From contig CAWEPZ010000011.1 in assembly GCA_963811105.1 (NCBI GenBank), positions 96,001 to 160,000 of the forward strand: DNA of 64,000 nt. The letters run 5' to 3'. This DNA is from Candidatus Bathyarchaeota archaeon. Lineage in GTDB: Archaea > Thermoproteota > Bathyarchaeia > Bathyarchaeales > Bathycorpusculaceae. The notes under the pieces are model-generated. The model saw only the letters and a program-made list of their open reading frames with translations. It was not told the DNA's origin and searched no databases. The position numbers and the translations under genes were made by a program. The number at the start of each line of letters is the position of its first letter. Within the stretch, counting starts at the first letter, position 1. Shown here in pieces: positions 25,281 to 47,302 of the stretch.

Positions 25281-25316
25281 GCTAGGAAAGGTTGAACAGC
25301 TAGGAAAGGTTGAACA
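25281..25316. repeat. Perfect 18-bp tandem duplication GCTAGGAAAGGTTGAACA x2
   Basis: Directly visible. Confidence 0.9.
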
Positions 25317-25474
25317 AGCCACAAGTCAGCCTAGCTGCCGTATTTGAAGGTATAGTGGGTTTGTTTGTCTTGTTTATCCTGGTGCTTGATAAATCCAGTA
25401 AAGCCTGTTTGGCTCATACAGTCCCTGAATAGTTTTTGACGCTGACTTGGCGTTAGGTCTATAAAGATAAGGCG

Positions 25475-25824: not shown

Positions 25825-25923
25825 CTAAAGAGCTATAGAACTTGTACAAACAAAAACATCCGATACTGGAACAATCCCGCCCTCGGGTAACATTATATTT
25901 TCATTTGGATGGCACATCATTAT

Positions 25924-26207
25924 TAACCGTAACTCGCTATTTTGACCCACAGAGTTAAAGAAGTGCTTTCCGATATACTTGTGTTGAAATTATTTGGGCA
26001 TTTAGAGCTTGATTTGGGCAGTTGGAATTATGTATAGCTTACAAAGATTCAAAGTTTGTAACCCATATGTAACCCATAGGCGAAACGAAATCATTTGACA
26101 ACGCGAATTCTCCAAATCAAAGCGTTACCCTCGATTAAGCCCTTTATAGAACCTCCCAAAAACATTTTCAGCAACGCCTATGGGTTACACTTGCGGAGTT
26201 ACGGTTA
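25924..26207. repeat. Nested inverted repeats with GTAAC core
   Basis: 12-bp IR 25924-25935/26196-26207; 15-bp IR 26068-26082/26175-26189; 11-bp tandem TGTAACCCATA x2 at 26057-26078. Confidence 0.8.
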
Positions 26208-26231
26208 TTAATAGAAAAAAACCCCCTTACT

Positions 26232-27206: not shown

Positions 27207-27359
27207 TTTTTACAGGACCTTTCGAGAGATTATTTTAAGTTCGATCTCATAAAAATGTTTGGGCAATAAATAGGAATTCATTGGAGAAAAATATAGTTAA
27301 ATTATTTTGTGAGTGATTTGATGACTCAGAGCATAAAAGGTTTGACGCTTGATCATTTG

Positions 27360-29162: not shown

Positions 29163-29171
29163 TAAGTTATC

Positions 29172-30248
29172 CTATATAATTTCCGAAAAAAGGCTGTAAT
29201 TATTTTTCATTACAGGCAACTCTTTTAAATTGATAGCTTTTCCTTCATTTAGGCTAATCTTTGCCGCTTCTGAAACAGCAACATTTCGTAAAGCGTCAAC
29301 CAAAGTTACCGGTGGCTTCCTGTTTTCTGTTATACTTTTTATAAAGTCATGAATAAGAGGCGCGTGATTGCCATAGCCTCCCTTGAAAATAACACCCGTC
29401 CTAATATTTCTAAAATTTGTTCTAGTAATCCCAACATGTTCTTTCAATTGATGATAAGGCGTTACAGTTCCATGGCGCTCAACAAGCTGACTAAGATTTA
29501 CGTTAAGCAAGATATCACCTGCAGAACCCATTATCCCTACCTCAAATTTAGTACTTCCAGCAAGCCATGACATGCTGATTGTAGACGTTGAACCGTTTTC
29601 ATAAGCAATTATCATGTGAAGATGCGTTACACACCTAGCTTTCCCCAATGCACCACTAAAACAAAAAACGGTTTTAGGATTGCTCGACATAAACCAGTTT
29701 GTCATGTCGACTGAATGAGGACCATAGTCATCTAGAATGCCCCAGTTTTCATAAACCCAAGCTTGTGTAGGCGAAACCGGGGGGGGCTGTACATGGGAGA
29801 TTGTGTTAATACCAAGTATCTTACCTAGCTTACCATCCACCACTTGTTTTTTTGTAGCCAAACATGCAGGATAATATCTGTAATTCTGAACTAAGCATAC
29901 TTTGCGATCGACTTTTTTGCTTGCTCTAGCTATTTCAAAAGCATCGCTTAAATCAAGCGTGAATGGTTTTTCAACAAGAACGTGCTTTCTAGCTTCTAAA
30001 GCGCTTAATACCGCTTTGGTATGCATTTGGGGAGGAAGGCAAATGATAACTAAATCGATATCTTCATCAAACATTTTGTTGTAATCATTGAATAGTTTAA
30101 CTTCGAGGTGTAATTTCTTTTTAGCTTGATCGAGACTCGCTTGGTTTATGTCAGCCACAGCCACTATTTTTGCTTCTTCTATGGTTTTTATCGCGGGTAT
30201 ATGAGCATTAGTCGCGATGTGTCCAAGTCCTATAATGCCAATATTCAT
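29172..30248 (-). CDS. Gfo/Idh/MocA-family oxidoreductase
   Basis: GIIGLGHIA, KHVLVEKP, GILDDYGPHSVD. Confidence 0.9.
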   Translation of the reverse strand: MNIGIIGLGHIATNAHIPAIKTIEEAKIVAVADINQASLDQAKKKLHLEVKLFNDYNKMFDEDIDLVIICLPPQMHTKAVLSALEARKHVLVEKPFTLDLSDAFEIARASKKVDRKVCLVQNYRYYPACLATKKQVVDGKLGKILGINTISHVQPPPVSPTQAWVYENWGILDDYGPHSVDMTNWFMSSNPKTVFCFSGALGKARCVTHLHMIIAYENGSTSTISMSWLAGSTKFEVGIMGSAGDILLNVNLSQLVERHGTVTPYHQLKEHVGITRTNFRNIRTGVIFKGGYGNHAPLIHDFIKSITENRKPPVTLVDALRNVAVSEAAKISLNEGKAINLKELPVMKNNYSLFSEII

Positions 30249-30263
30249 GCAATTTACCTTTTT

Positions 30264-31147
30264 CTATGCTTTTTTCCTTGATCGACTTGCCATAACGGTG
30301 CCGAGCTGGAGGACGAAGCTTTCCATTGACCCAAAGTGTGAATCAACTTTAGGATTAAGAACGTCACCGCTTAAAGTATAGTTCATTGAGCCTATCTTTT
30401 CTTTCTGACACATCTTTATGTGCTTAACAAAAAAGGGGTGAAAACCCAATATTTTGGCACATAAACTGTCGCAAGACACAGGATCTTTTGATGAAAGTAT
30501 AATGCCAGCATTAATAGGGATTCCGTAACCAGGGCCTTGAGCGCCAGTAAGAGCGATTATACCGTCTACAATTGATAGGTTTGGTTTGAAATAATTATTA
30601 GCTTGCACAATCGCTTCATCTAGATTTTTATGATACCTTACTTTTCGCTGATACGGAATGCATCCGAACTGATTCTTTAACACACACGATATTTTAGTTA
30701 TTGAGTGAGTCTTTAATTTGGACAAAGAAATAAAGTAGCTGTCATTATAGATATCTGGAATTTTTTGCCCCTTCAGAATTCCTTTTTCTATCGTTTTTGT
30801 CGCATCAGTTGTGCTTAGGTTCACAAAGCGTGCATTCCATTTTGCAAGAATTTCCGTAAAACCGAACCACTCAATAAAAGGTCAGGTAGCGAAGCTGTCG
30901 CATTGCTTTCAACTATCGCTATTTCGCCTTTATACTCAAGATTTGTTCTAAGCCAATTCAGGAATGCGTCTAAGAAAAGCGGGTGGGTAATAGCACCTGT
31001 TTCAGGTCCTCTTAACCCACAAAGATTTATTTTAACTAAAATACGTTTGGAATCTATCTTATCAAGGTGAACGAGGCCCATTAGTCTGTCTATGCTTTGG
31101 CTCATGCCGTCATAGTCGGCTTGTTTAACAATAGCTACTTTGCTCAT
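30264..31147 (-). pseudogene. DUF362 protein, frameshifted
   Basis: LVKINLC...THP...IVES, then KLKTH...LKNQFG...IVDGIIA...DPVSCD, in two frames. Confidence 0.8.
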
Positions 31148-31240
31148 GATTTCACAATGCAGAGTATTGAGCGAAGTGTGTGTATCCTAAATACTTTTGG
31201 ATCGAACTTATTTAACATTTGATCGTTCGCCATTTGCTTC

Positions 31241-31987
31241 CTAAAGAAAGATAACGCCAATACCATATCCACCTTCGCCCCAGTCTTTAACTAAATCCCT
31301 GTGCGCATATTTTTGCTTGATCTCGCTCCAGAACCTTGGTGCCCCCCCAACGACTTCTACATTGCCGGGAACAATGTCATGAAAAGCCATAATACCATTT
31401 TCTTTCACTAATTGGCTATATATGCAGAAGTCATTTCTCAGTCCTTCATAGGTGTGATCACCGTCAACAAAAATGAAATCAAGTTTCTCATTTCCAAGAA
31501 TTCTTTTCACTTCATCTAATGCCTCTGCCAAGTGAGAGTTCTGCCTTATTAGATGTATGTTTTGTCGGTTTGTGGCAAATGATTCATACAAAGGAGCACA
31601 TGCTTGGGGATAGCCACCACCAAATTTTCCACCAGGAAGATCTATACTAATAATAGTTGCATCATCACTTGCAATCTTAGCGAATAGGGACAGGGTTCCA
31701 CCACCAGCGGTTCCAATTTCCAGAAGTCTCCTTGGTTTGCGCTTTTCCATAATCTTCAGCAACGTTGCAATTTCTTCCTTTATCTGGGATGAACGGATAA
31801 AGAAGCCACTGACCCCAAAAGTTAGTTTTAGGTAATCATCCACTGTTTTACAATTAGAGCTTTTTCTTTTAATAAGAAGCGATCCAAATGTAGTGATTAA
31901 AGTAAAACCAAGAAGAAATAGACGTAGCAATCGGACGAATTTAAATGAAAATGATTGACTATTAATCGACAAAAGTTTTTTGGTCAA
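31241..31987 (-). CDS. Class I SAM methyltransferase (Methyltransf_24-like)
   Basis: LEIGTAGGGT, DFIFVDGDHTYEG, AFHDI. Confidence 0.88.
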   Translation of the reverse strand: MTKKLLSINSQSFSFKFVRLLRLFLLGFTLITTFGSLLIKRKSSNCKTVDDYLKLTFGVSGFFIRSSQIKEEIATLLKIMEKRKPRRLLEIGTAGGGTLSLFAKIASDDATIISIDLPGGKFGGGYPQACAPLYESFATNRQNIHLIRQNSHLAEALDEVKRILGNEKLDFIFVDGDHTYEGLRNDFCIYSQLVKENGIMAFHDIVPGNVEVVGGAPRFWSEIKQKYAHRDLVKDWGEGGYGIGVIFL

Positions 31988-32001
31988 AGTTCTATTTCAG
32001 A

Positions 32002-33041
32002 TCAGACAGTAGTTTTTTTTGACGTTAATAGTCCTTGGAAATAGCCATAACTAAATGAAAACATGAAGACAAAATCAGCAATTATTCCAATTGCGCCAAG
32101 GTAAAATTGTAAGGGCAAACGTAAATTTTTTCCATGCAGGATGTAAATGGTGATCTCTGCAAATAAAACTAATAGAATCAATCCATCGATTGGCAAATAA
32201 TAAGAATGCCCCACAATTATTCCTAAAATAAAGAGAAATAAACAAGTAGATACTACGGCTAATTGTCTGATTCTGTGATCCCGTTTACTTCGACTTGCTT
32301 TATCATTAAGGTTTGCTGAAATAGCGCCAAAAGCTATAGCAAACCCCATGGTAGTCCCATAGTTTGATTCTTTCTTTAAAAAATTTGACAAGCTATCGCT
32401 TCGCACATCTTCAACACTGTATTCCAGTGCACCATCTTTTAATATTAAAAAAGAGTTTTTACTTAACTGATTTGCAGTCACTTGGTCTTCAAGCCCTAGT
32501 GACTTATTTTGTGTATACTGAAAACCGCCTATTTTTTTAAGAGCTGAGATACGAAACATATCAGCCTTCAGTAAGGAATATGAAATTTGGATTAACCCTT
32601 CTTGTTTAAAATCTAAGTCCCAATATTAGCGAATGAAGCGCGTCTGTCATTTTTTTCCAATTTTAGAACAGGTTGTCCGCACACAACTACAACATTTTCA
32701 TTTTCCAGATTCCTAATGCATTTATTCAGATAATTCTCGTTAATCAGTGCTACATCATCTTGGATAACAAAAAGGAATTCTTCATTTGGCTTAGCAAATA
32801 ACAGCGCTTTGTTCAAGTTCCCCGAAAATCCTAAATTCTGATCGTTCCGAATCACTGAGATTTTTCCATTGTAGTCTGATAACAGTTTTTTTGCGGGGTT
32901 TGGAGAGTAATCATCCATCACGAGAATTCGAAAAGGATAGCAGTCTTGCTTGAGAAGAGATTCAATACAAGCTTTCAAGTCGTCTGCTGTACCGTTATAG
33001 AATGGAATTATTGCAAGAACATCTATTTTTATGTCTCCCAA
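32002..33041 (-). pseudogene. GT2 glycosyltransferase with C-terminal TM helices, frameshifted
   Basis: IIPFYN, VMDDYS, NLGFSGNLN, IQDDV; second ORF has GLED and TM segments. Confidence 0.75.
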
Positions 33042-33106
33042 AGTAGTATTACTCAGTTATTTTAATAATTGCACTCAGTAGACTGGCTGAGTTTTTTTGA
33101 AAAGCG

Positions 33107-34320
33107 TTATATATTATCACCGATTTTACAGTATGCTTCATAATAATTCTTAGCAATAATCGCCCAATTGTATTTTTCTTCTACTATGGCTCTTGCTCTC
33201 TGACCCATTTTTTCTGTTAAAGCCTCATCTGCCATAATAGTTGAAATCTTATCTGCAAGTTCTTCAATGTCATTAACATCAACAAGGAAGCCTGTCTTTC
33301 CATCCTCAATCATTTCGCTTCCATTAGTTCTTGTTGAAACCACTGGTCTGCCACATGCCATAGCTTCCAGGACAGGTGTCGAGTAGCTTTCTGCTAACGA
33401 AGGCTGGCAGAATAATCGACACTCTTTATAGCTTTCTAAAAGTTCAACTCTTGTAAGATGACTCTTAATCAGCAAAGGGACCTGCATTTGTGCCGCCAAG
33501 TTTTTAAGGGCAACCTTTTGTGGTCCATCCCCAATTATCTCCAACTTTGTGTCAGGATATTGCTTGCGAACCTTTGAAATAGCAAGAATAAGGGCGTTGA
33601 AGTTTTTTCTTTTAATAAAGTTACCGACAGATAATACGGTTTTAGAGCCGATTAACGGTGATAGAAACGGAAACTCAACTAGTTTTACACCGCCAGGAAT
33701 TACTTTAATTTTTTTAGCGCTGACATATTGAGAGTAAAGTTTTTGCGTTCGCTCATTGTAAACAACTATTAAATCAGCTTTGTTAATAGTCTTTTCAAAA
33801 GCAGTTTTGAAGTTTACATCAAGAGATTTTCGAACCCATTTCAATATTGAATACTGAATTTTTGGAAACACAGTCGTTTTCGAGTATGCCGTGAAATCGT
33901 CCTCAAAATACGGGTGAGTAGCTTCGGCTGGACCTATAATAAAGGGATGACCGTCTGTTTTTCCTGTTACCGCAAGAAGATCAAAGGACTCAGTCCCTGA
34001 TTTACCATAAAAAAATGGTGGATTAAAGAATCCTTGTTTTTATTAAGAAAATAATTTGACCGTTTCAACATTTTAGCATAGAACAAAGGGATATTGCTAA
34101 AATTTACTTTCCCTTCAGAGAGTTTACAGACCGCAACCTTTTTTGATGGAACTCCTTGCCACTTAAAGTCATTTAATAAACCGTAGAAATCCAGGTTATA
34201 ATCATCAGCCATTGTGGTTAAAAGGTTTTGAAACACTTTGCTACCGCTAACGCTTAAACTCAAAGCTTGTCTTTGTGAAACAACAAGAATTGGAGAAGAG
34301 AGCCAAGACGCATTATTCAA
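33107..34320 (-). pseudogene. GT4 glycosyltransferase, frameshifted near 33967
   Basis: VGNFIKRKN, IIGDGP, PSLAESYSTPVLEAMACGRPVV, DGKTGFLV. Confidence 0.85.
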
Positions 34321-34486
34321 TTATAAATGCCCACCTAATTTTGCTTATTTTGAACTTGAGGGGATTCAGAGATGTTAAGGCTTTTTATAGATAGGTCTGA
34401 AGAAAATGGAAATTTACTACTACAAATGAACCGAATGGAATGGCTTGTATGAATATTACAGCATTAAATTTGGAAGCGTCGAAAGA

Positions 34487-35375
34487 TTACTCCTTGAGAG
34501 ATGCTAATAATTTGAAGGTTTCGAGGGCATGACTTTCGTTGGATATACCTACTGCGACACCGTTCATGTTTGGCAGGGTTTTAAGATAATAAGCGGCCTC
34601 TGAAGGATTAAAGTAGCCTGATGCAAGGATATTTATTGCTATTACATTAGCTGTTGGCAGTGTTGCCAGAACTCGTTCGCATTCATCTTTTGAAGGCGAC
34701 ATTTGAAAGCCCGCCTCATTAAATGGCGCTACAACAATGAGATTCCTTAAATCTATATTCCATTCTTTAAATTTCTTAACAAGAAGCGCAAAATTACGAG
34801 TTTCGAATCCAGGTTTTGATTTTGCTGAGAGGACTGCAGATATAAATAGCTCAAAAAGCCACCTTAAGTCAGAGAGTTAAACCCATATCTGTTAATAATT
34901 CATGCAATAAGACGGAGTCTAATTTTGCATGTTTTCCAGCGGTTGACCTAATTTCAGCAATTTCATATGATAAAAGGCCACTTTAACAGAGACCTAACAT
35001 CACTATTGGCCAACCCCTTGATACATGTAAGTACTGCTTTGACATTTCCTGAAAATATCATTTGCTTTGTAAATCCTTTAGCAAGACCTTCCATTCCTTT
35101 CTGACCACTTAACCGGATGAAATCAACTGCACTGGGTACTATAGATTGGAATTCAACGAACCCTCAATTTCCTTGTCTTTAATTGCTTTAAGAATAGACA
35201 ATGTGTTATCGTTAACCGTGAACATAAAACCGTCGGCACCGCTTTTCAGTGAAGTAAAGACTAGGTTAGCACAAAATTGGGGATCGGTAATTTTGTCAAC
35301 TCTTTTTAACCGAACCTTATCTTGTGATAGATGATTGACCCCTTGAAAGGCATTATCTCCTACGAGCAATAGCAT
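34487..35375 (-). pseudogene. Hypothetical protein in glycan cluster, fragmented
   Basis: LLVGDNAFQGVNHLSQ start, KPGFETRNF and APFN..GFQMSP middle, AINILASGY end, spread over several frames. Confidence 0.55.
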
Positions 35376-36398: not shown

Positions 36399-37095
36399 TT
36401 AACGAATAAGACGTTGGTGTAGTATTTCAATTGCAGCTTTTAATCCCTGAGTTGGCATCGGCAATTTGCTATTACCACTAATTCTTCCTTTATCTCTGCA
36501 TGGATCTTCGCCTACTCTTAAACCAGCCTTCTTGATTTTCGCACAAAGCACAGGCTCATAGTCAAATTTATTATCTGGAAGATTTACTTTTTTGAGACAT
36601 TTTGTCCAAAATGCGTTATACCCACAACAGACATCTGTGTACTTGGTTCCGTATAAAATATTGTAAAAGAACCAGCATTTTGTTGCCAACCTTTCGATGC
36701 ACTGGCATAATTGGATTATACTTAAGAAAACGGGAGCTTTTCGAAAAGTCATAACCTTTCAGAAGTAGGGATACGAATTCTGGAATCTGCGTTGGGTCGG
36801 TTGACCCGTCTGCATCAAGAGTCACTATAATCTCACCAGTAGCGTTCCTAAACCCATCTTTCATCGCGTCATCTTTTCCCCGTCCTGGCTGATAGAGTAT
36901 TCGAATCGAGGGCAACATACCTTTTGCAATAGAAACAGTGTTATCTTTTGAATAACCATCGACTAAGATTACTTCGTCAACCCAATCAGGAATCTTGTTA
37001 AGAACCTTTGGCAAATTTGCCTCTTCATCAAGTGTACAAATTACAATTGAAACCTTCGGGCAAGAAAGCAAGTCAATTTTTTCAAGCGAATTCAT
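36399..37095 (-). pseudogene. GT2 (Dol-P-mannose synthase-like) glycosyltransferase, frameshifted
   Basis: VSIVICTLDEE, LVDGYSKDNT, TLDADGS, YTDVCCGYNAF; ATG at 37095. Confidence 0.85.
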
Positions 37096-37181
37096 GTAAC
37101 TTACCTGCTTATTGTAATTGCCGATCATGAAAAGAAACTCAAACGTTATAACCAGCAATGAAGCAATCCATAAAAAAAACC

Positions 37182-38186
37182 TTATAAGGAAACAACACAG
37201 CGTCCACCCGCAGCTTTATAGACCGCACTGACAATTCGCATTGCTACTAATCCGTCGTATCCATTTGCCAAAGGCTCACGATCCTCTTTAATACAGGCAA
37301 CAAATTCCTTCCACTCTTCACACCACGACCGGTCGTCTCCACGGAATTCAACAACCTCTTCAGCAAAAGGCTTTGCGAAATCTTTTCTACCAAAAGTTAG
37401 GCACTCATTACCATAGCTACCACCTAGACCCTCAGCTACAACATATCCTTCGGATCCAAAGACTTCAAATGAAAACAAGTTCTTCCATTGCGTTAAACTG
37501 GCATGAATAGATGCTACCTGACCTGCTTTCGTTCTAAGCAAAACGAATCCGTTATCTTCTACTAAATTCAAATTTGGTAAATAGTTTGCCATGAAGGCAG
37601 AGACCTCAATAAATTCCCCTAAAAACCACCGTGAGAGATCAATCGCATGCGTTCCTTGATCCATCATCTCACCGCCTCCAGCAATCTCGGGATTCGCTCT
37701 CCATTCCTTTTCAAAACCGGGTCTGCCTCCAATGCCATACCTGCAACGAACAAAATTCGGCTCGCCAATCTCACTTAATAAGAGTTGCTTAGCTTTCTGG
37801 ATAGCAGGGTGAAAGCGGTGATTTAAGCCGCATTTTAACTTTACGTTATTTACGTTTGCCGCCTTGACCAAGGCTTCTGCCTCTTCAACGGTTCTGCTGA
37901 GTGGTTTTTCGCACAAAACATGTTTGCCACTTTCCATTGCTGCTAAGCCAATTTTAGCGTGAAGGTGAGGCGGAGTGCAAATTACAACTGCATCTAAGTC
38001 GTTTCTCTTGACTACATTTTCCCAGCCATCAGTAGATTCGCATCCGAAACTTTTAGCCAGAGCAGCAGATTGAGCAGATTCCGCGTAATCGGCACTTATT
38101 ACAACCAGTTCTGATCCGAGAGAGCTTCGGATTGCCGGAGCTCTTCGCCTGGCTTGAAGACCAGCACCTATTAACCCGACTCTCAC
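37182..38186 (-). CDS. Gfo/Idh/MocA-family oxidoreductase (LmbZ-like position)
   Basis: GLIGAG, KHVLCEKP, GLNHRFHP, GGGEMMDQGTHAID. Confidence 0.9.
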   Translation of the reverse strand: MRVGLIGAGLQARRRAPAIRSSLGSELVVISADYAESAQSAALAKSFGCESTDGWENVVKRNDLDAVVICTPPHLHAKIGLAAMESGKHVLCEKPLSRTVEEAEALVKAANVNNVKLKCGLNHRFHPAIQKAKQLLLSEIGEPNFVRCRYGIGGRPGFEKEWRANPEIAGGGEMMDQGTHAIDLSRWFLGEFIEVSAFMANYLPNLNLVEDNGFVLLRTKAGQVASIHASLTQWKNLFSFEVFGSEGYVVAEGLGGSYGNECLTFGRKDFAKPFAEEVVEFRGDDRSWCEEWKEFVACIKEDREPLANGYDGLVAMRIVSAVYKAAGGRCVVSL

Positions 38187-38202
38187 GTCTTGACCCCCAA
38201 CA

Positions 38203-39512
38203 TCAACTGAAAGTCGCGTCCTCTACCACACCAAGGTAAACAAACCCCATATTAATCAAACTCTCCGCATCTAACATGTTTTGGGCGTCAATGATGACTG
38301 GCTTTTTCATCAAAGATTTAAGGCGCGGGAAATTTAACTCTCTAATTCTGGCCAATCGGTTACGAAAATTAATGCATCACTTTCTTTAGCCGCGATCATG
38401 GGATCCGAACAAAATTCAAATTCAAGTTTTCCTTGAATTTCACTAAGGTCAGCTTTGGGATCGTAAGCCTTAATTCTCGCACCACCAGCCACTAAATCAT
38501 TAATTATCTCGATTGAAGAAGAACAACGAAGCGTGCTGGTTCCAGCTTTATAAGTCAGTCCGAAAACGCAGACTGTTAAGTTCTGAATGGAACCATATAG
38601 TTTCTGCAACTTTCCAGCAATGATCTTGTTTTGTCGCCGATTTACTTCAAAGACACCGTTAATTAGCCGAGTTTCATAACCAACCTCGGCACCAAGTCTG
38701 AAGCACTTTGACATCCCGTCCTAATGCTCCACCTGCAAAACCTAAACCCGGCTTCAGCATTGCCTTAGGTCCTATTCTGCTATCTAAACGTAATGCTTCT
38801 GCAACCTTTAATGAGTCGGCACCAACTTCGTCGCAAATATTGGCGATTTCGTTAGCAAAGCTAATTGAAGTGGCTAAGAAGGCATTAAGGGCATGCTTAG
38901 TCATTTCCGCAGACCTTAAATTCATTTTTATCTTTGGGTCTTTTATGACGCTGAAAAAAGCCTCCACTTTATTCAAGGTACTCCTGTTGTCGGCGCCAAT
39001 AACTATTCTTTAGGATTCATAAATCTGTTAATGGCTTGACCAAGCCTAAGGTTTTCAGGAACACATGCCACATCAAATTCTAAGGCGGGTCTTTTCTTCT
39101 TGATTAGAGACTTTAGCTTTTCACAAGTACCAACTGGAACTTGACTACTGATAATAACTATAGACCCACTTTCAAGAGATCCAGCTAATGCGAGGTGGCG
39201 TCATAAACTCGGACAAATCTATCTCGTCGTTATCATCCACGCGAGTGTCAAAAGTAACAACAACAAAATGTGCCCCTTTGACTGCACTTCTAATATCTAT
39301 AGTGTAACTTAATTCGTTTAGATAAATATTCTGAGGATAAGACCTCCAAGCTCAGGCTCAAACAAAGGAGGAATACCTTTGTTTAGGTTCTCAACTCTTT
39401 TGCTGTCTTTATCAAAACCAACCACTAGATACCCTAAGTCAGCAAGACACGCTGAATATACGGAGCCTAAATGCCAAGTTCCTATAATGCAAACCTTAGA
39501 AGGATTTTCCAT
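38203..39512 (-). pseudogene. UDP-glucose/GDP-mannose dehydrogenase-family protein lacking the catalytic Cys, multiply frameshifted
   Basis: IGTWHLG, PLFEP, PENLRLG, SAEMTKHALNAFLA, DSRIG, GLGFAGGALGRD, GLTYKAGTSTLR, YDP. Confidence 0.85.
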
Positions 39513-39564
39513 ACCAGACCTGCTTGAATTCGTTTGCCCAAGATGACAATATTACAGAGTGATT

Positions 39565-40410
39565 TTAGTTCTTAATAGTTGGCACAAACCTAACAAGATT
39601 TGCCAACGTTTTGTAGTGTGCTTTTGGCTGCAAGCATAGAAAATCAACAAAATTTGGAAAACTGACGAGCTTAGTTATATCAGCGGGGGTTTGGCAAGAT
39701 AATAGACCGACCCTCGAAATCAATAACATTTGATATCCCGCATTATGAAGCAGCTCAAAAATGTCATTCGGACTGAAACCAAAATCTTGCACCCAAGGCG
39801 GGAAAATCTCTAGCATCAATATTGGTGGCGATGAACCTGCCAAAATAGCCCTCATCCCTTTCAGGACTAAAATCTCCGCACCTTCAACATCGATTTTTAC
39901 GAAGTTGATTAAATAAATACCCTTGTTTCTAGCATAGCTATCAAGTGTGTCCATTGCGCAGTCGTAAGATGTGATTGATTTCGAACACCACGAAGCCACG
40001 GAATGAGTAACCAGTGAAGCCTCTGTGGAAACACCTGCTGGCATCCGAATAGTTGATCTACCTGTATTATCGCTGACCGCACATCTGTTCAGAACGATTT
40101 GGTTGCCTAACCGCGTCATTTCAACCTTTCGACAGAGTCTTTCAAAAGTTGGTGGAACTGGCTCAAACGCATGTATTTTCCCCTGAAAGCCGACAGAGTG
40201 CGCCAATAAGATCGTAAACTCTCCAACATTTGCACCGACATCGAAAACGACATCACCCTTCTCGACGGATCTCATCAGAATCGAGATCTGACTACTAGAC
40301 CTACCCAGTATTTTTAATCCAAGCTCGAAAATTCGTGGTTTAACAAACGAAGAGGGCATCGATGTTCTACCTAAAGCGCTTATTTCTTTCCAAAGTTTCT
40401 GCGGTAACAT
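39565..40410 (-). CDS. FkbM-family SAM methyltransferase
   Basis: FDVGANVGEFT, AFEPVP, VKIDVEGAE. Start 40410 preferred because the upstream gene ends at 40479. Confidence 0.88.
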   Translation of the reverse strand: MLPQKLWKEISALGRTSMPSSFVKPRIFELGLKILGRSSSQISILMRSVEKGDVVFDVGANVGEFTILLAHSVGFQGKIHAFEPVPPTFERLCRKVEMTRLGNQIVLNRCAVSDNTGRSTIRMPAGVSTEASLVTHSVASWCSKSITSYDCAMDTLDSYARNKGIYLINFVKIDVEGAEILVLKGMRAILAGSSPPILMLEIFPPWVQDFGFSPNDIFELLHNAGYQMLLISRVGLLSCQTPADITKLVSFPNFVDFLCLQPKAHYKTLANLVRFVPTIKN

Positions 40411-40478
40411 TGACAAAAAAAATTGTCGCCTTTGCGAGTTGCAATGGTTTAGGAATAAGCTTGGGCTATTGTTTGCCC

Positions 40479-41423
40479 TTACTGGTTTTCTTGGGCTATT
40501 GTCCATCGCGCAGTTCGCATAATTGCTTCTTTAGATGAAATTGTTTGCTTCCAACCAAGATTCTTTATCTTATCAATGGAAAGCACAACAGAGGATTGTC
40601 ACCAATCCAACCTCGAGATCCACCAGTGTGCTTCGCTTCACTTTGGTTTTGTCTAAGTGCATCTCTTCCATCACAAGGTCTGCAACCTCTTCTACGATTG
40701 TTTGCTCTTCTAAGACCAAGGTTAAATATGTAACTTTGCCAGAAGCCTTTCGATATCCAATTAGTATTCCTTCGACACAGTCCTTTACGTGGAGGTATTC
40801 TTTGCTTTGCTTGCCGTCCCCAAGGATTTCAATTTCAGAAGGATTTTTCAATAATTTGTGCTGAAATCCAGAATGACTCCTCTTCTACAGCGCTCTCCAA
40901 TGACATTTGCGAACCGGAACGCCCAGAACTTCAGAGACGCAAACTCAGTATGAGCTTCGACGTATGCCTCACAAGCAAGTTTGGAGGCTCCGTACAAAGA
41001 TGTTTGAGATGGGAAATAATCCTCTGGGGTTGGTTTTACAATAGCTTCACCGTAAACTGCTGACGTTGAGGCGAAAACAAAATCACGAATATTATTCTTG
41101 ATCATAGCTTCCAATATGTTAAGGGTCCCGACCAGATTGTTATCTAAATCAGATTTGTGATCGACTAAACTTTTGCGAATGTTAGCCTGAGCGGCGAAGT
41201 GAAATACAACGTCATGTCCAGCAAAGATTCGGTTGAGCGCTTCCTCTTCTCTTATGTCAACTTGTTGAACTGAAAGGCGAGGATTGTCAGAATTTTGTTC
41301 CAGGTTGTCCATTCGACCACATGACATATTATCCACAACAGTTACGGAGTGACCTTCTTTGAGAAGTCGGTCTACCAAGTGGCTTCCTATGAAGCCTGCA
41401 CCGCCTGTTACTATTGCCTTCAT
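40479..41423 (-). pseudogene. NAD-dependent nucleotide-sugar epimerase, frameshifted
   Basis: TGGAGFIGSH, STSAVYG, YGASK, GDGKQSKEY; ends EAIMRTARWTIAQENQ. Confidence 0.88.
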
Positions 41424-41491
41424 TATAGCTCAATCTCCTCGGGTGTTTTGGATGTTTCTCTAATCTTATTTTGACAATTCATAGTTCTCAC

Positions 41492-42340
41492 TTATTTAAA
41501 ATTATTATCATTCAGTTTCGTGACCCGTCTTAGCGTATAAATATCAGAGGATACAAGTTCCGAGACATTTTCTCCCATATTTTGCCAGTCATCCCAAACA
41601 GCGCTTATTAGTTTCCCAGTCAAGCCTTTCGACTCATCAGAAGCCAAAAAAACTGATAATGCAACTGGCTTATCAAGAGTCGTTACACCTTCCGCCTTAA
41701 TTCTTTTTGCTTTAGCAAGCGCTTCCACACCAGCAAGCTCACCAGCGGCTATAACTTCATCCTGCAAACGTGTTGCTATACCGCCAGGGGCAATGGCATT
41801 GACCTGAACATTGGACGCTTTGACCTCTTCGCTTATTGTCTCAGTGAAACGAACTACTGCAGCTTTTGACGTTGCGTAAGCTGAGAAGCAAGGCTGTGAA
41901 TTGGCTGCGCCTCCACCTGAAAGGTTAATGATTTTTCCAGAACCCTGCTTAATCATAAAGGGCAAAACTGCTTTGCAGCAAAGAAATGTACCTATAAGGT
42001 TGACATTTATTGTTTCTATCCACCTAGTCGTGTCGTTCTTAACTAAAGGTCCAATAGGTCCAAATATGCCAGCGCAATTCACCAAAATGTCGACCCGACC
42101 AAATTTTTGAACCATGGATTCAACCATTTTTTCAACGTCTTGCGCCTGAGACACATCAACCTTTAGAGCTAATGCAGGTGTTCCAATTGCCTTTATCTGA
42201 GATACCGTCTCATTTACATCGGGTAGAGTACGAGAAGCGACCACCATTGTGGCACCTTCACGAGCAAATGCTAAAGCAATGGCTTGACCGATGCCCCTGC
42301 CACCGCCCGTAATTAATGCAACTTTGCTCTTGAGCTTCAT
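41492..42340 (-). CDS. Short-chain dehydrogenase/reductase
   Basis: TGGGRGIG, VNCAG, NLSGGGA, YATSK, C-terminal DIYTLRR. Confidence 0.92.
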   Translation of the reverse strand: MKLKSKVALITGGGRGIGQAIALAFAREGATMVVASRTLPDVNETVSQIKAIGTPALALKVDVSQAQDVEKMVESMVQKFGRVDILVNCAGIFGPIGPLVKNDTTRWIETINVNLIGTFLCCKAVLPFMIKQGSGKIINLSGGGAANSQPCFSAYATSKAAVVRFTETISEEVKASNVQVNAIAPGGIATRLQDEVIAAGELAGVEALAKAKRIKAEGVTTLDKPVALSVFLASDESKGLTGKLISAVWDDWQNMGENVSELVSSDIYTLRRVTKLNDNNFK

Positions 42341-42350
42341 GTTACCAGAC

Positions 42351-43089
42351 TCAATTTGCTTTGGAAAAACATTCGTCGCATGCTTTGTAGGCTTCTTGGG
42401 TTCCTATGTCCCATAGGTAGTCTTTTAGCATGTAACCGTAAACTGGCTCTTGCCGATAGAGCCACTCAACGAATTTGCCCGGCTGATCCGTTGGCAATCC
42501 AAGCGCCAAATACTCTGCTAGTCGTTTGCCTACTGTTTTGGGGAAGACATACACTGCACCGCAAGTCATCGTTGATTTTGGATCTAAGGGCTTTTCGATG
42601 AAGTCTAAGATTTTCCCTTTCTTATCAGCCTTAACGATTGCACATCTCTTAGCTTCTTCGACGTTTCTAACTTCATAGAGAGCGACCAGAACAGTTTTTT
42701 TCTGGTAAAAAGCCTCCAACATTTCTGAAAGGTCATCACTAAATACGCCGTCGCCCGCAATGACAAAAACATCATCTTCGTCTGCAAAGGCAGTAATGTT
42801 AGCCATAGCTTTTATGGCACCTGGCTTTTGCATTTCGTTTTCAGAATCGTCAGGAAGCACTACGACATTCCTATAATTTCTTGAAGCCAAGTATTCTTTG
42901 AATTGCGGCTGAAAACGCTGATTAGTTGACAACACTATCTTTTTCAACGGCGGATTGAACGCTCCTAGTTTTTCCATTACATAATCAAGTATTGGTTTGC
43001 CATGCGATGGGTAACAATGCTTTTGGTGTGTTCAATGTGAGGGGCCAGAGCCGTTTTGCGTATCCTCCGGCCAGAACAATTGCGTACAG
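42351..43089 (-). pseudogene. Sugar-1-phosphate nucleotidyltransferase, frameshifted near 43005
   Basis: YAIVLAGGYAKRLWPLT..PKALLPI read manually from CTG at 43089; IAGD, FIEKP, WDIGT. Confidence 0.85.
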
Positions 43090-43152
43090 AAAATCACTCT
43101 ATTTTATATCATAAAACAGGGCATTTTTTAATATAGGATACCGTAAGTTGCT

Positions 43153-43542
43153 TTAGATCCATGTGGTTTCGATTTCTTCTATTTGTTTGAAATGAGGATC
43201 GTCTGAGATAAGGACAGCTTTGAGAATTGAGGCTGTTGCAGCAATCATGCTATCGCCCATTGAAAGCTGGTACTTATGCCTAAGTTCAGCGGAAACTTGC
43301 GCTATTTGATCATCAACAGGTATAAGCTGAAATTCTTCTTTCATTGAAATGGCTCTTAGTTTGGCAACGTCCCGCCCTTCTTGAGAAAGAGACAGGTTGT
43401 ACACTTCATGAATCACTATGGTAGAGACATACCTGTCTTTGAGTCTTTTTTTCTCTGCCATTTTTTGTCTTAAAACTCGATCTTTAGAATAATAGAATTC
43501 TACGAAAAATCTACTATCGTAAGCTACCTTATTCATTTTCAT
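43153..43542 (-). CDS. vapC: PIN-domain (VapC) toxin
   Basis: YDS, STIVIHEV, LSMGDSMIAAT, ISDDPHF. Confidence 0.88.
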   Translation of the reverse strand: MKMNKVAYDSRFFVEFYYSKDRVLRQKMAEKKRLKDRYVSTIVIHEVYNLSLSQEGRDVAKLRAISMKEEFQLIPVDDQIAQVSAELRHKYQLSMGDSMIAATASILKAVLISDDPHFKQIEEIETTWI

Positions 43543-43759
43543 GCCTGAGCTTGTCGAGCAACTTGTTTATTTCTTCAACAGTTGCAAACTCCGACCCTGA
43601 ACCTATCATGTCCCAAAACGACTTTTTAGGTTTCAATAGGATTCCTTCATCTGTTTCAACTACCGCAAGGCGTGTGCCCTCTTCGATTTTGAACTTCTTT
43701 CGAATTCTAACTGGAATGGTAGTCTGACCCTTCTTTTTTACGACTATTTCTGTTTCCAA
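43529..43759 (-). CDS. vapB: AbrB/MazE-family antitoxin
   Basis: KKKGQTTIPVRIRKKFKIEEG; overlaps vapC. Confidence 0.88.
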   Translation of the reverse strand: METEIVVKKKGQTTIPVRIRKKFKIEEGTRLAVVETDEGILLKPKKSFWDMIGSGSEFATVEEINKLLDKLRHENE

Positions 43760-43827
43760 CTTTCAGGCCTGTCTTACTTCAAAGGAAAAATCAAACATAA
43801 ATGTTTTCGTTTTTTTCAGACAACACA

Positions 43828-44502
43828 CTATGCTTTGCATGAGGCTTTAAATTCGAGCCAGGCTTGGTCGAACTCTTTTATAGTGTCCTCGGTCTTCTGG
43901 TGGAATGGCATCTGCTGAAGAACTTTAGGCGTGATAGTTATAATGTGCGCTCCTGCCGCGGCTGCTTCAGCCACATCCTCGGGTTTACGTATGCTACCAA
44001 CGATAATTTTGGTTTGCAAACCGCTCTCTTCGATTATGCGTTTAGAATCTTGAATAACTTTAACTGGGTCGCCGCCTGCATCTCGCACTCGACAGTAGAA
44101 TATGCTTGCGTAAGTTGCACCTGACAAGGCTGCTAAAACAACTTGGTTAGCGGTCATGAGACAAGTGACGTTTGTCTTGATTCTTTCTTTATGAAGCTTG
44201 CTAGCCAGCACAAGCCCGCGCCCGCTCGCCCACATTGGGATCTTTATGACAATATTTTTGGGGTTCCAACTAGAGTATTCTTTAGCTTCAGCAATCAGTG
44301 CCTCGTCGCTTTCATTGGTTTTAGTAACTTCTATGCTAAGCGGTACATCAATCGCTGAGAGGATTTCTTTCACTCGGTCTTTGAAGTTTATTCCTTTTTC
44401 ACAAGAGAATATTTTTTGGTTAGTGGTAACGCCACTTATGACGCCCCACGGCAGATAATCTTTTATTTCTTTTACACTTGCTGTGTCAATGAATATTTCC
44501 AT
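43828..44502 (-). CDS. Transaldolase (short TalC/FSA family)
   Basis: IFIDTA, GVTTN, IKIP Schiff-base Lys, GSIR, HIITI. Glu in LSIEV and Phe in SIFYCR indicate transaldolase rather than FSA type. Confidence 0.88.
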   Translation of the reverse strand: MEIFIDTASVKEIKDYLPWGVISGVTTNQKIFSCEKGINFKDRVKEILSAIDVPLSIEVTKTNESDEALIAEAKEYSSWNPKNIVIKIPMWASGRGLVLASKLHKERIKTNVTCLMTANQVVLAALSGATYASIFYCRVRDAGGDPVKVIQDSKRIIEESGLQTKIIVGSIRKPEDVAEAAAAGAHIITITPKVLQQMPFHQKTEDTIKEFDQAWLEFKASCKA

Positions 44503-45096
44503 TTTTCACTCACATCTTTTTCAATAATTTTAGACGCGTCAAACAGGCTAGGCGTAATGATATCAGGCTTAACCGCCATGGTTTCCATGAGCCTGCATAA
44601 GTCACACTTTACTGCCCCAATCAAAATTGATATGCACCCAACAGCCTTCCCAGCCTTAATATCCATAAGCCCGTCGCCAACCATATAGCATTTTGAGGTA
44701 TCCAACCCAAAATCCGCCTTCGCCTTCAAAAGCATACCAGGCTTAGGCTTGCGACAGTCACATACAACTTTGAATTGTATGCCTTTTTGCATGCGGATGG
44801 TGGAAACAGTAATACTCAGCGTCCACATGAGCCTTTTTCTTCCCAAGCAACAACTTCATTTCTAAGCGAACTTTCTCAAACAACTCCTCAGACATCTTAC
44901 CCTTGGCAATAGCGGGTTGATTAGAAACCACAATGACCTTCAAACCTAAACGATTAAACGTCTTAATCGCCTCGGATGCACCCGCTATCAACTTGAACTG
45001 TGCAGGATTTAGAGGGGAATCTATAGTCCCAAACTCGGGGAAATAGACCATCTTGTTAATTACGCCGTCACGATCCAAAAATACTGCGTCTGTTAT
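44472..45096 (-). pseudogene. gmhB: GmhB-like HAD-IIIA sugar-bisphosphate phosphatase, frameshifted near 44800
   Basis: AVFLDRDGVIN, VVSNQP, YYCFHHP...CDCRKPKPGML, MVGDGLMDI. Confidence 0.85.
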
Positions 45097-45248
45097 TTGC
45101 TATTACATCCAATATCCGAATCTATTACTTCAAGAACCTCAAAGATAGTGTACTTTAATCCAGCCTTATCTAAATACTTCTTAAGCTGGACACGAACTTG
45201 AGCTGAATCCTTATCAGCATCATCTATCCAAACAATAGTACGTTTCAT
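45093..45248 (-). CDS. 51-aa microprotein between gmhA- and gmhB-like genes
   Basis: MKRTIVWIDDADKDSAQVRVQLKKYLDKAGLKYTIFEV...; starts just after the gmhA stop and its stop overlaps the gmhB start. Confidence 0.55.
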   Translation of the reverse strand: MKRTIVWIDDADKDSAQVRVQLKKYLDKAGLKYTIFEVLEVIDSDIGCNSK

Positions 45249-45249
45249 T

Positions 45250-45852
45250 TTAAACCGTCTCCATTATTGCTTGACGAAGGCCATCGCAAAGCATATGGGT
45301 TAAACACGCATGGAACCCCTCAACCTGAGGAGTAGAATTAACTGGAGCCACAATACAGGCGTCCGCAACTTGCTTTAAAGCGCCCCCGTCAAAACCGGCT
45401 AAACCAATGAGTTTGCCGCCGTTCTCTTGAACAAACTTTCCTGCCTTCAACAGATTCTGCGACCAGACCCCAGCCTTATCAGCGCCCGAACCGCCATGAA
45501 CACTAATAACTACAAGCACATCGCCCTTATTCATCAGGTTCCGAAGCTGCTCATAATAAACACTATCCCAACCCAAATCATTAGTAAGCGCTGAAACCAA
45601 CGGAATATTATCATTCAGACAAACAGCTCTAAACCGCCGCTTACCCTCAACCGCCGTATACTTCGCCAAATCACACGTAAAATGCGTCGCTGTCGAAGCT
45701 GAACCGCCATTGCCAGCAATAAACACCTGCTTATCATTCTTCCAAGCTTCAAAAAGCAAATCCATAACTTTCACAATATCGTCTTGCGAAACCCGTTTAG
45801 CAACGGCTTCCAATTCCACAAGATAATCCATAACAAATTTTTCCTTATTCAT
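45250..45852 (-). CDS. gmhA: GmhA-like SIS-domain phosphosugar isomerase
   Basis: AGNGGSASTATHF..DL, ALTND, GDVLVVISVHGGSG, GFDGG, VEGFH. Confidence 0.85.
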   Translation of the reverse strand: MNKEKFVMDYLVELEAVAKRVSQDDIVKVMDLLFEAWKNDKQVFIAGNGGSASTATHFTCDLAKYTAVEGKRRFRAVCLNDNIPLVSALTNDLGWDSVYYEQLRNLMNKGDVLVVISVHGGSGADKAGVWSQNLLKAGKFVQENGGKLIGLAGFDGGALKQVADACIVAPVNSTPQVEGFHACLTHMLCDGLRQAIMETV

Positions 45853-45860
45853 ACAATCAC

Positions 45861-46844
45861 CTAAACATTAAGCGAAATCGTCGAACCATGAGGTTCAAAA
45901 TTAAAAGAAATTTCCCGCAAACCTTCCTTAGCCATGGCCTTGCGAATCTTGTCCTTACAGCTCTCACAATAAAACATTAAAAATCCTCCACCCCCGGCCC
46001 CCATTAATTTGCCCCCTAAAGCACCGTTCTGCAAACCTAACTCATACCAACGGTCAATCAAGCCATTAGAAATGGCACCTGAAGTCGCTTTCTTAACCTG
46101 CCAATGCTCATCCTGCAACCTGCCAAACTCCGAAATATCCCCTCCCTCCAACGCCTTCTTAACCCTAAAACCAATTTCCTTAATCGTATGCATTGCATCC
46201 AAAGCCTTAGACCTATCTATCTTGACATTAGTGCTTTGATCCTGCAAAACACCTGTTGAACTACGCTCGATACCCGTGTAGAAATAAAGTAAACTATTCT
46301 CCAAGTCACGCACCGTATCCTCAGGAATATTCAAATGCGTAACCTCCACCCGACCGTTTCTTTGGATATTTAGGCAGACAAAGCCGCCGAAAGCCGCGAT
46401 AAATGTGTCTTGATAACCGCATGGCTCCTTCAGAATATTCATCTGAACAGCACATGCCTCCTCGGCAAGGGTCTGCCTAGACAAAAACTCATCCTTATAC
46501 GTGTGAAGCGCATGCAAAAGCCCAACAGTGAAACAACTCGAAGACCCCAACCCAGTCTTCGAAGGAACCTCAGCAATAGAAATAATCTCCAAGTTACTTT
46601 TCAAACCAAGCAGCTTCAACGATTCCCTGATAACAGGATGCTTGATACTATCAACTGGAGAAGTAATCTCAGTTATCGAATAGCTTGCCCTAACAGGCTC
46701 CTCAAACCGGCTATTAACCACCAAATATATGTATTTATTAATAGCAGAAGTGACAACAAACCCGCCATACTGATCACTATAAGAAGGCAAATCTGTTCCT
46801 CCGCCGCCCAAAGTCAAACGAAGAGGAGTCTTACTAACAATCAA
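45861..46844 (-). CDS. hddA: HddA-like GHMP sugar-phosphate 1-kinase
   Basis: TPLRLTLGGGGTD, TGLGSSS, GYQD..AAFGG, GGKLMGAGGGGF. Confidence 0.9.
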   Translation of the reverse strand: MIVSKTPLRLTLGGGGTDLPSYSDQYGGFVVTSAINKYIYLVVNSRFEEPVRASYSITEITSPVDSIKHPVIRESLKLLGLKSNLEIISIAEVPSKTGLGSSSCFTVGLLHALHTYKDEFLSRQTLAEEACAVQMNILKEPCGYQDTFIAAFGGFVCLNIQRNGRVEVTHLNIPEDTVRDLENSLLYFYTGIERSSTGVLQDQSTNVKIDRSKALDAMHTIKEIGFRVKKALEGGDISEFGRLQDEHWQVKKATSGAISNGLIDRWYELGLQNGALGGKLMGAGGGGFLMFYCESCKDKIRKAMAKEGLREISFNFEPHGSTISLNV

Positions 46845-46846
46845 GC

Positions 46847-47302
46847 TTAATGTAACCGACCATTATTCAACTGAGTAACCGCCAAGTATCTAGCAAACCC
46901 GGCGTCATCAGCCCAACGAGTCGCCAAATGGTTACCCAAGCCAACTGCCATAGCGCTAACTTTTCGAGCTAAAGAGAAACCAACCGTCCTCACCAACCGA
47001 TCCACCAGACCTTCCCTCGCAAGCTTAAGCTTTTCGATTATGGCCGTCACCACATTGGCCAGCGTAGCACTCCTAATGCAATCAACGTATCTTACGGTGA
47101 GATCCAATATGCCTCTCTCAACTCTGCTTAAGGCTCTATACCAAATTCTACCTCTAAGGGCAGCCTTTTTGATAATTAAGATTCGAGCTACAGGGCACAC
47201 ATTGCTTTGCTGACTTTCAACTGCGCCTTTGGGAACCGCTCGCTTTAAAAACGAAGGCGCCACCCTTAACCTTGCCATGCCCCGTCCTTCACCGAACGCC
47301 AT
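46847..47302 (-). CDS. Basic helical hypothetical protein heading the glycan operon (start uncertain)
   Basis: ALRGRIWYRALSRVERGILDLTVRYV...WADDAGFARYLAV; stop abuts hddA. Confidence 0.6.
   Translation of the reverse strand: MAFGEGRGMARLRVAPSFLKRAVPKGAVESQQSNVCPVARILIIKKAALRGRIWYRALSRVERGILDLTVRYVDCIRSATLANVVTAIIEKLKLAREGLVDRLVRTVGFSLARKVSAMAVGLGNHLATRWADDAGFARYLAVTQLNNGRLH

Follow-up and report, generated by a model that had tools for sequence, protein, structure and literature searches.

The guanosine diphosphate (GDP)-D-glycero-alpha-D-manno-heptose pathway is carried out by four enzymes, GmhA, HddA, GmhB and HddC, and we know of no characterised GDP-heptose cluster that includes a transaldolase. 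Eight-carbon aldoses formed by transaldolase chain extension are, to our knowledge, restricted to the lincosamide antibiotics, for which a 2020 PNAS study reportedly gave the step order as 6-epimerisation, 6,8-dehydration, 4-epimerisation and transamination. The roles of the lincomycin genes are listed in Table 2 of one study as transaldolase (lmbR), isomerase (lmbN), kinase (lmbP), phosphatase (lmbK), guanylyltransferase (lmbO), epimerase (lmbM), dehydrogenase (lmbL), oxidoreductase (lmbZ) and aminotransferase (lmbS) (PMC4351081). LmbR is described as using fructose 6-phosphate (F6P) or sedoheptulose 7-phosphate (S7P) as donor and ribose 5-phosphate (R5P) as acceptor (PMC5854111), and according to the account in a 2025 review LmbM, LmbL, CcbZ and CcbS convert GDP-octose to GDP-lincosamide (PMC12945683). 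In the present study a stretch of 64,000 nucleotides, hereafter the window, was analysed as part of contig C11 in the genome of a Candidatus Bathyarchaeota archaeon (G000; 3.49 Mb, 15 contigs, 41% G+C). It contains a block of sugar-nucleotide genes (37182-46844), for which a preliminary description had proposed a family-for-family parallel with LmbR/N/P/K/O/M/L/Z. With about even confidence we regard this block as a damaged copy of a widespread, horizontally spread sugar-nucleotide cassette for a cell-surface glycan, in which a product with eight carbons is likelier than one with seven.

Pfam searches bore out the nine families named in the preliminary description, their order and their shared strand: GHMP kinase, SIS-domain isomerase, HAD phosphatase, transaldolase, nucleotidyltransferase, short-chain dehydrogenase/reductase (SDR), NAD epimerase, a homologue of uridine diphosphate (UDP)-glucose dehydrogenase and a Gfo/Idh/MocA oxidoreductase (Gfo). 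The minus strand carries every sizeable reading frame of the interval (Table 1). The picture of one co-oriented nine-gene block held for families and strand, but not for its integrity, as four of the nine genes are broken up over more than one frame, a VapBC pair is interspersed between transaldolase and nucleotidyltransferase, and an FkbM methyltransferase between epimerase and dehydrogenase homologue. Eight of the nine families are common to the cassette and the clustered GDP-octose pathway of lincomycin and celesticetin, and as in the Lmb system a dedicated transaldolase stands upstream of a GmhA-like isomerase and a Gfo-type oxidoreductase accompanies a UDP-glucose-dehydrogenase-like enzyme. 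In contrast to the Lmb/Ccb clusters, the cassette comes without LmbS-type aminotransferase, thiol, nonribosomal peptide synthetase and condensation genes and is embedded in glycosyltransferases and methyltransferases, surroundings which agree with the glycan rather than antibiotic setting assumed beforehand. It occurs in archaea and uncultured bacteria rather than in Streptomyces, no member of which was returned in protein searches, in an exhaustive profile search or among 10 high-GC representatives selected from 150. No aminotransferase family was found among the scanned open reading frames (ORFs) of the window island, of the intact copy in the genome G045 and of the bacterial locus L174, and the earlier statement that an SDR is present and an aminotransferase absent holds for both the window and G045.

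In G045, which belongs to the same genus, the same 12 genes occur uninterrupted and in the same order (kinase, isomerase, phosphatase, transaldolase, nucleotidyltransferase, SDR, epimerase, FkbM, dehydrogenase homologue, Gfo, family-2 glycosyltransferase (GT2) and another Gfo), with 47-81% identity to the window proteins, and are followed downstream by further glycosyltransferases and a DUF362 protein. The notion that the isomerase was missing from G045 was dropped, its isomerase being intact. True kinase orthologues were found in two of the 24 other genomes of the genus that were searched initially (G005 and G020), and the cassettes of G045 and G090 were found via the transaldolase; the cassettes of G005, G090 and G020 are intact.

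A pattern scan for the TTNQK transaldolase, with one genome per species, returned 124 relatives; the analysis was continued with the best 80 loci, all from metagenome-assembled genomes (MAGs). Judged by record titles, these best 80 of 124 loci comprise 71 archaeal, eight bacterial and one untyped record (titled Acidoferrum), and the archaeal ones are divided among Nitrososphaerota (30), Thermoplasmatota (13), Bathyarchaeota (12), Hadarchaeota (5), Methanobacteriota (1) and unclassified archaea (10); the hosts of the core span four archaeal and about seven bacterial phyla. Fifty of these 80 loci are well flanked, the transaldolase having 6 kb or more of sequence on either side, and within 8 kb the SIS isomerase was counted in 49 of them, the HAD phosphatase in 43, kinase and nucleotidyltransferase in 41 each and the orthologous epimerase in 34. 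Two apparent absences turned out to be gene fusions, namely a phosphatase-transaldolase fusion of 431 amino acids (aa) in a Chloroflexi MAG (L035, 9374-10669) and a transaldolase-kinase fusion of 565 aa in a gammaproteobacterial MAG (L093, 9971-11668). A compact version in Nitrososphaerales (L066) consists of a family-28 glycosyltransferase, nucleotidyltransferase, kinase, isomerase, phosphatase, transaldolase and two epimerases, and in L174 the full set is part of a polysaccharide locus of a bacterium, which also encodes an initiating sugar transferase, family-4 glycosyltransferases (GT4) and a carbamoyltransferase. Since dozens of unrelated genomes repeat this set with identical or similar gene order, its grouping is far beyond chance, and the combination of kinase, isomerase, phosphatase and transaldolase is conserved as a unit in archaea as well as in bacteria. 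The parallel with the Lmb enzymes is no accident of the window. As a separate observation, the GHMP kinase of the cassette in the Bathyarchaeia genome G189 (L123, 13887-16076) is 729 aa long and contains an intein with Hint and LAGLIDADG homing-endonuclease domains.

The cassette transaldolase is the sole PF00923 match in G000. More than 1,400 relatives were found in the protein collection, the best 120 of which have 71% identity or more, among them a protein from Acidobacteria at 72%. It has the fold family and length of the short TalC/FSA-type transaldolases (Bacillus subtilis 3r8r, Thermotoga maritima 1vpx, Thermoplasma acidophilum 3s0c), and its Lys, Glu and Asp align with those of the Tal structures 3r8r and 1vpx, which places it with the Glu type (transaldolase) and not with the FSA type; the aligned Lys we take to be the Schiff-base residue, and Glu and Asp presumably have catalytic roles. 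However, it differs from these short transaldolases in carrying TTNQK for TTNP(S/T), in belonging to a separate clan and in standing always in a sugar-nucleotide cassette. The exchange of the canonical Pro-Ser/Thr after TTN for Gln-Lys is invariant in the clade, with TTNQKIF present in 14 of 14 aligned members, and both this motif and SVHGGSG of the isomerase were found as the preliminary description had given them. Against TIGR00875 (fsa_talC_mipB) the enzyme scored 178.1 bits and did not reach the equivalog cut-off of 245.95 bits. In a tree of 110 sequences the TTNQx enzymes form one clan (Shimodaira-Hasegawa-like approximate likelihood ratio test, SH-aLRT, 98), apart from six housekeeping transaldolases of the same taxa (99) and from a third group (100), so that the comparison with housekeeping TalC, which had been suggested at the outset, put the TTNQx enzymes outside the housekeeping group. 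Cassettes hold at least three transaldolase lineages, with TTNQK, with TTNPS and with KIFADGA...TTNPT, respectively. TTNQK is therefore not required for a cassette, and these lineages together with the fusions in L035 and L093 show the transaldolase to be integral to the pathway.

The GDP-heptose pathway employs the same four families as the core in the same predicted reaction order, and the best-scoring named NCBIfam models for the core are those of HddA, GmhA, GmhB and HddC. However, the scores are below the cut-offs throughout: 181 versus 600 bits for the kinase (HddA, NF049969), 94 versus 209 for the isomerase (gmhA, TIGR00441), 63 and 58 versus 178 for the two phosphatase pieces (GmhB) and 34 versus 300 for the nucleotidyltransferase (HddC). 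The isomerase, whose best solved relatives are phosphoheptose isomerases, differs from the GmhA structures 1tk9 and 5i01 by a nine-residue insertion after ISVHG, just past the loop that binds the terminal phosphate. The loop ISVHGGSG.DKAG.WSQNLL is present in 72 of 90 cassette isomerases and a different insertion of six residues in eight more. Given scores so far below the NCBIfam cut-offs and the insertion at the phosphate loop, the cassette enzymes are, as judged by their sequences, not canonical heptose enzymes. The cassette also exceeds the GDP-heptose pathway by an obligate-neighbour transaldolase, which has the SIS isomerase beside it in all but one of the 50 well-flanked loci.

The host genomes were examined for the metabolism of the presumed substrates. 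Single-family searches of G000 detected no transketolase domains, no phosphoketolase and no type-1 3-deoxy-D-arabino-heptulosonate 7-phosphate synthase, dehydroquinate synthase II is present, and family searches turned up no enzyme making or needing erythrose 4-phosphate. By Pfam, transketolase was absent from G000, G005, G090, G020 and G099, no route to S7P being found in some hosts, and it was present in G045, G097, G098, G100 and G101. A canonical transaldolase accompanies the cassette-type one in four of five other host genomes (three Nitrososphaerota and one labelled Thermoplasmatales), and in three of these four it lies within 3 kb of a transketolase gene; the canonical gene of G100 contains two stops and is remote from transketolase. 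G045 also possesses both a canonical and a cassette-type transaldolase. Supplying S7P would be a useless role in hosts without transketolase and a redundant one in hosts with a transketolase and transaldolase of their own, whereas the transfer of the three-carbon unit of F6P to R5P works in both host groups, which favours R5P as the acceptor and an octose as the product. The distribution likewise favours the view that the cassette transaldolase is not there for the pentose-phosphate pathway. That the product is a nucleoside diphosphate (NDP)-octose is given about an even chance. Within the genus as a whole, transaldolase was absent from 61 of 81 genomes searched.

Members of the UDP-glucose 6-dehydrogenase family make uronic acids by means of a catalytic Cys. 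The absence of this residue from the cassette homologue, already remarked upon in the preliminary description, was confirmed, the window reading GGALGRD and G045 GGTLARD where PDB 3gg2 has GGSCFPKD. The G045 homologue (P0121) matches solved UDP-glucose dehydrogenases over its entire length (E 1e-87; PDB 3gg2, 4a7p) and retains their three-domain architecture and active-site Lys, Asn and Asp, but the Cys of GGxCxxKD is replaced by Thr in G045 and in the family, and by Ala in the window; GxGxxG is represented by G-I-W-H-L-G. Of 121 close homologues, 117 share G.WH.G and at least 98 GG(T)L.RD, an alignment of 21 diverse members shows Thr265, Lys208 and Asn212 to be invariant, and among the best 150 cluster representatives the Cys position is taken by Thr in 95 and by Cys in 30. 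Because the Cys is absent, a uronic acid product is not expected. A scan of metagenome contigs centred on the homologue yielded at least 560 relatives, and in those 23 of the kept loci that extend 5 kb or more to either side the Gfo orthologue is adjacent in 22, the epimerase lies just upstream in 16 and an SDR is present in 14; kinase and transaldolase are both found in 15. Among 301 sampled Bathyarchaeia genomes one (G189) has the homologue, and its locus is again a cassette with GT2, SDR, epimerase, Gfo, kinase, isomerase, phosphatase and TTNQK transaldolase. Epimerase, dehydrogenase homologue and Gfo occur together in the window, G045, G189, L029, L032, L092, L095 and many metagenome loci, and constitute a second recurrent module, usually found with the core unit.

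In the window both parts are disrupted, and the breaks were located by aligning the G045 proteins with tblastn. The reading frame of the phosphatase changes once, within a stretch of five A near 44778 (the 207-aa G045 protein aligns in two frames), and so does that of the nucleotidyltransferase, near 43003-43005, the first 29 codons of this gene lying in another frame with 93% identity to G045. The epimerase has two frame changes, near 40861 and near 40570 (the 313-aa G045 protein spans three frames), and the dehydrogenase homologue five (the 445-aa G045 protein aligns in alternating frames). Further single frame changes are found in GT2 and the next gene downstream, and DUF362 is also split. 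Eight units of the block are intact, namely kinase, isomerase, transaldolase, SDR, FkbM, both Gfo and VapBC, the last counted as one.

Whether these changes are real decay appears about evenly balanced. Their clustering in few genes and the loss of an invariant residue, the Thr of the dehydrogenase family being Ala here, speak for decay, as do three long aminoacyl-tRNA synthetase genes that are intact elsewhere in the genome. For assembly indels it can be said that some changes lie within short homopolymers, that a DUF1616 membrane-protein gene outside the island (window 796-1888) is split into two overlapping frames matching consecutive parts of the profile, and that, of the 43 matches to ABC-ATPase domains across the genome, five, which belong to four genes, are interrupted or incomplete. 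None of the public runs contained more than 0.14 of the sampled words, and contigs from four runs represent related strains; these are in frame at three of the frame-change sites of the window, with one base fewer at 44778, one base fewer at 43003-43005 (four of four runs) and one extra base after 40861. Intact relatives are expected either way, so that this does not tell a real mutation from an assembly indel. In comparisons of the window genes with L018, L026 and L017 by the ratio of non-synonymous to synonymous substitution rates (dN/dS), aimed at relaxed selection in the broken genes, dS was saturated (0.9 to >2.9, or undefined). Unless the frame changes are assembly errors, the local copy is, from its reading frames, probably inactive.

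Two further signs of damage were considered and dropped. The CTG start of the window nucleotidyltransferase is no such sign, as the intact isomerase of G045 also lacks an ATG, GTG or TTG start, and the N-terminus of the nucleotidyltransferase was not lost to a VapBC insertion, as its first 29 codons are present in another frame. In the G045 isomerase (L016, 14198-14806) the first in-frame candidates after a GAGGTG box are ATA and CTG, and the window nucleotidyltransferase starts with CTG (43089), as against GTG in G005; non-canonical start codons may be in use in this lineage. A contig of run X1 joins 39150 to 44170 and skips 5019 bases, with only 21 letters on its shorter side, which may reflect a strain lacking the stretch or a chance join. 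Beyond the block, a flavodoxin ORF (47859-48417) matches profile positions 1-93 of 145 and is overlapped by a second frame without Pfam match, which may be another frame change.

For an intact cassette the following route is proposed. The dedicated transaldolase would move the three-carbon unit of F6P to an aldose phosphate, most likely R5P, giving octulose 8-phosphate, which the SIS isomerase would convert to the aldose 8-phosphate. The GHMP kinase would then phosphorylate C1, the HAD phosphatase would take off the terminal phosphate and the nucleotidyltransferase would form the NDP-octose, in which the GalE-like epimerase would invert one ring centre. Where present, the Cys-less homologue could oxidise the secondary C6 alcohol as far as the ketone only, and together with Gfo and SDR could remodel the side chain, possibly to a deoxy form, before downstream glycosyltransferases and methyltransferases would use the product. 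The gene set observed would in this way follow the enzyme logic of LmbR/N/P/K/O plus LmbM/L/Z, minus the aminotransferase.

Several points weigh against this octose reading. The eight carbons are deduced from gene content and host metabolism, the likeness to Lmb/Ccb is one of gene content and presumed logic, the transketolase absences come from Pfam searches of MAGs that are 92-99% complete, and at least six genes of the local copy are out of frame. In G090, L025, L035, L038, L039 and L096, Gfo and SDR occur without the dehydrogenase homologue, which weakens a pairing of the LmbL/LmbZ type; Gfo need not be the obligate partner of the homologue, and the 6,8-dehydration to an 8-deoxy-octose, predicted in the preliminary description, is weaker for it and speculative. 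Heptoses, moreover, are far commoner in glycans than octoses, and an NDP-heptose (e.g. D-glycero-D-gluco or -galacto) would result if the transaldolase only secured S7P and the GalE-like enzyme gave the galacto form. The best named models of all four core enzymes and the solved relatives of the isomerase belong to heptose synthesis, and 13 of the best 80 cassette loci are from Thermoplasmatota. According to the accounts in two papers, D-glycero-D-galacto-heptose is proven in the N-glycans of T. acidophilum (PMC12448462, PMC11407970). This is a higher sugar of an archaeal surface glycan whose galacto form would need a 4-epimerase like that of the cassette, and isomerase, kinase, phosphatase, nucleotidyltransferase and 4-epimerase would be able to produce it from S7P. 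We nevertheless consider a heptose product unlikely, given that the matches to the named models are all far below the curated cut-offs, that intact cassettes occur in the transketolase-less G005 and G090 and no erythrose 4-phosphate enzyme was detected in G000, that hosts with a full pair of transketolase and transaldolase keep a divergent second transaldolase in the cassette, and that this enzyme is fused to pathway enzymes in two lineages. A combination of transaldolase, gmhA and hddA was also not found in the literature searched.

The octose reading would lose its side-chain steps if two pathways were merely juxtaposed, the core making a higher sugar and the homologue, Gfo, SDR and FkbM modifying an ordinary UDP-hexose after the model of the WbpA/WbpB-type pair, an arrangement that is independent of carbon number. 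Neither kinase nor transaldolase lies within 10 kb in eight of the 23 homologue loci, which also counts against the octose reading, the module is present in two of the 50 well-flanked transaldolase loci and missing from G005 and most Nitrososphaerota cassettes, and the best NCBIfam matches of Gfo include archaeal UDP-N-acetylglucosamine 3-dehydrogenase; the homologue/Gfo module may serve other sugars too. However, such independence is rather improbable in view of the 15 homologue loci with kinase and transaldolase, since transaldolases are otherwise unusual in glycan loci, and of the single homologue among the 301 Bathyarchaeia genomes, which again lies within a cassette; without the Cys no uronic acid would arise by the known mechanism, which makes a WbpA-like role unlikely. 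Another acceptor (hexose 6-phosphate, arabinose 5-phosphate) or another donor, yielding a nonose or another octose isomer, would suit the invariant Gln-Lys in place of Pro-Ser/Thr, and the isomerase loop, longer by nine residues or by six in the second class, is compatible with any longer substrate. We know of no formation of a C9 sugar by a transaldolase, and we judge this option very unlikely. R5P is universally available and has a precedent as acceptor in the description of LmbR (PMC5854111).

The coordinates of the cassette and its surroundings are compiled in Table 1. Homologues of the 151-aa protein adjoin the kinase in G005, G090, G045 and G020 (28-55% identity), and orthologues of the SDR are found in G045 (71%), G090 (55%) and many cassette loci. 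The VapBC pair occupies the same place in G020 (L017, 1898-2504; 66-78% identity) and is not found at this place in G005, G090 and G045. The rest of the glycan island comprises a split homologue of a 311-aa G045 protein, a GT4 without N-terminal domain, a GT2, a methyltransferase, the split DUF362 gene, a third Gfo, a 600-aa protein without family, an FkbM methyltransferase and an IS91-family transposase; the last (Y2_Tnp and a zinc-binding domain, 23891-24913) stands at the downstream edge of the island. A 1529-aa ORF is located on the plus strand at 57988-62577 of the window.

Table 1. Features of the cassette and the adjoining glycan island in the window, listed in the direction of the minus strand; roles are predicted.
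Feature	Position	Strand	State	Basis and remarks
151-aa protein	46847..47302	-		No Pfam family; directly upstream of kinase
GHMP kinase, 327 aa (HddA/LmbP role, anomeric kinase)	45861..46844	-	intact	Pfam GHMP_kinases_N and _C; 75% identity to G045
SIS-domain ketose-phosphate isomerase, 200 aa (GmhA/LmbN role)	45250..45852	-	intact	Pfam SIS_2; extended phosphate loop
HAD-IIIA sugar-bisphosphate phosphatase (GmhB/LmbK role)	44472..45096	-	split	ORFs 44758-45078 and 44472-44846 match consecutive halves of GmhB models
TalC-type transaldolase, TTNQK clade, 224 aa	43828..44502	-	intact	Pfam TAL_FSA, 140.7 bits
VapB antitoxin (MazE/AbrB fold; 43529-43759) and PIN-domain VapC toxin (43153-43542)	43153..43759	-	intact	Pfam MazE_antitoxin, PIN
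Sugar-1-phosphate nucleotidyltransferase (HddC/LmbO role)	42351..43089	-	one frame change, CTG start	NTP_transferase (ORF 42351-42977) from profile position 46
Classical SDR, candidate ketoreductase, 282 aa	41492..42340	-	intact	Pfam adh_short, 195.9 bits
GalE-like NAD epimerase (LmbM role)	40497..41423	-	two frame changes	Pfam Epimerase on ORFs 40848-41423 and 40573-40851; top NCBIfam match galE
FkbM-family methyltransferase, 313 aa	39565..40506	-	intact	Pfam Methyltransf_21; 47% identity to the G045 gene in the same place
Cys-less UDP-glucose-dehydrogenase homologue	38227..39512	-	five frame changes	UDPG_MGDP_dh domains on ORFs 39318-39512, 38674-38976 and 38334-38714
Gfo/Idh/MocA oxidoreductase, 334 aa (LmbZ/CcbZ role)	37182..38186	-	intact	Pfam GFO_IDH_MocA and C-terminal domains; 67% identity to G045
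Family-2 glycosyltransferase	36399..37158	-	split near 36660	Glycos_transf_2 on first ORF; 254-aa G045 protein aligns in two frames
Second Gfo/Idh/MocA oxidoreductase, 326 aa	35383..36363	-	intact	Pfam; 63% identity to the G045 gene in the same place
Rest of glycan island	23891..35372	-		Pfam, tblastn

Within the literature searched, octoses in connection with transaldolases were found for lincosamides, aminoglycosides and plant or photosynthetic metabolism, and the one paper listed for octose, archaea and glycan deals with E. coli, so that the cassette appears to be undescribed. Tentatively, and with slightly less than even confidence, we propose a hitherto unrecognised transaldolase-dependent NDP-octose glycan pathway in Bathyarchaeia, Nitrososphaerota, Thermoplasmatota, Hadarchaeota and several bacterial phyla, with an optional Cys-to-Thr module acting at the C6 alcohol, of which the octose branch of the lincosamides would be a specialised offshoot. 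The local copy, being disrupted, adds little beyond pointing to this family. Should the product be a heptose instead, the cassette would explain the supply of heptose in archaea without transketolase and might be the missing heptose route of the Thermoplasma type. If the octose pathway is real, a function would be gained for a large Cys-less family, with its at least 560 relatives in one metagenome scan, that is now annotated as UDP-glucose 6-dehydrogenase, and octoses would count among the usual constituents of surface glycans in archaea and bacteria, soil ammonia-oxidising archaea included.

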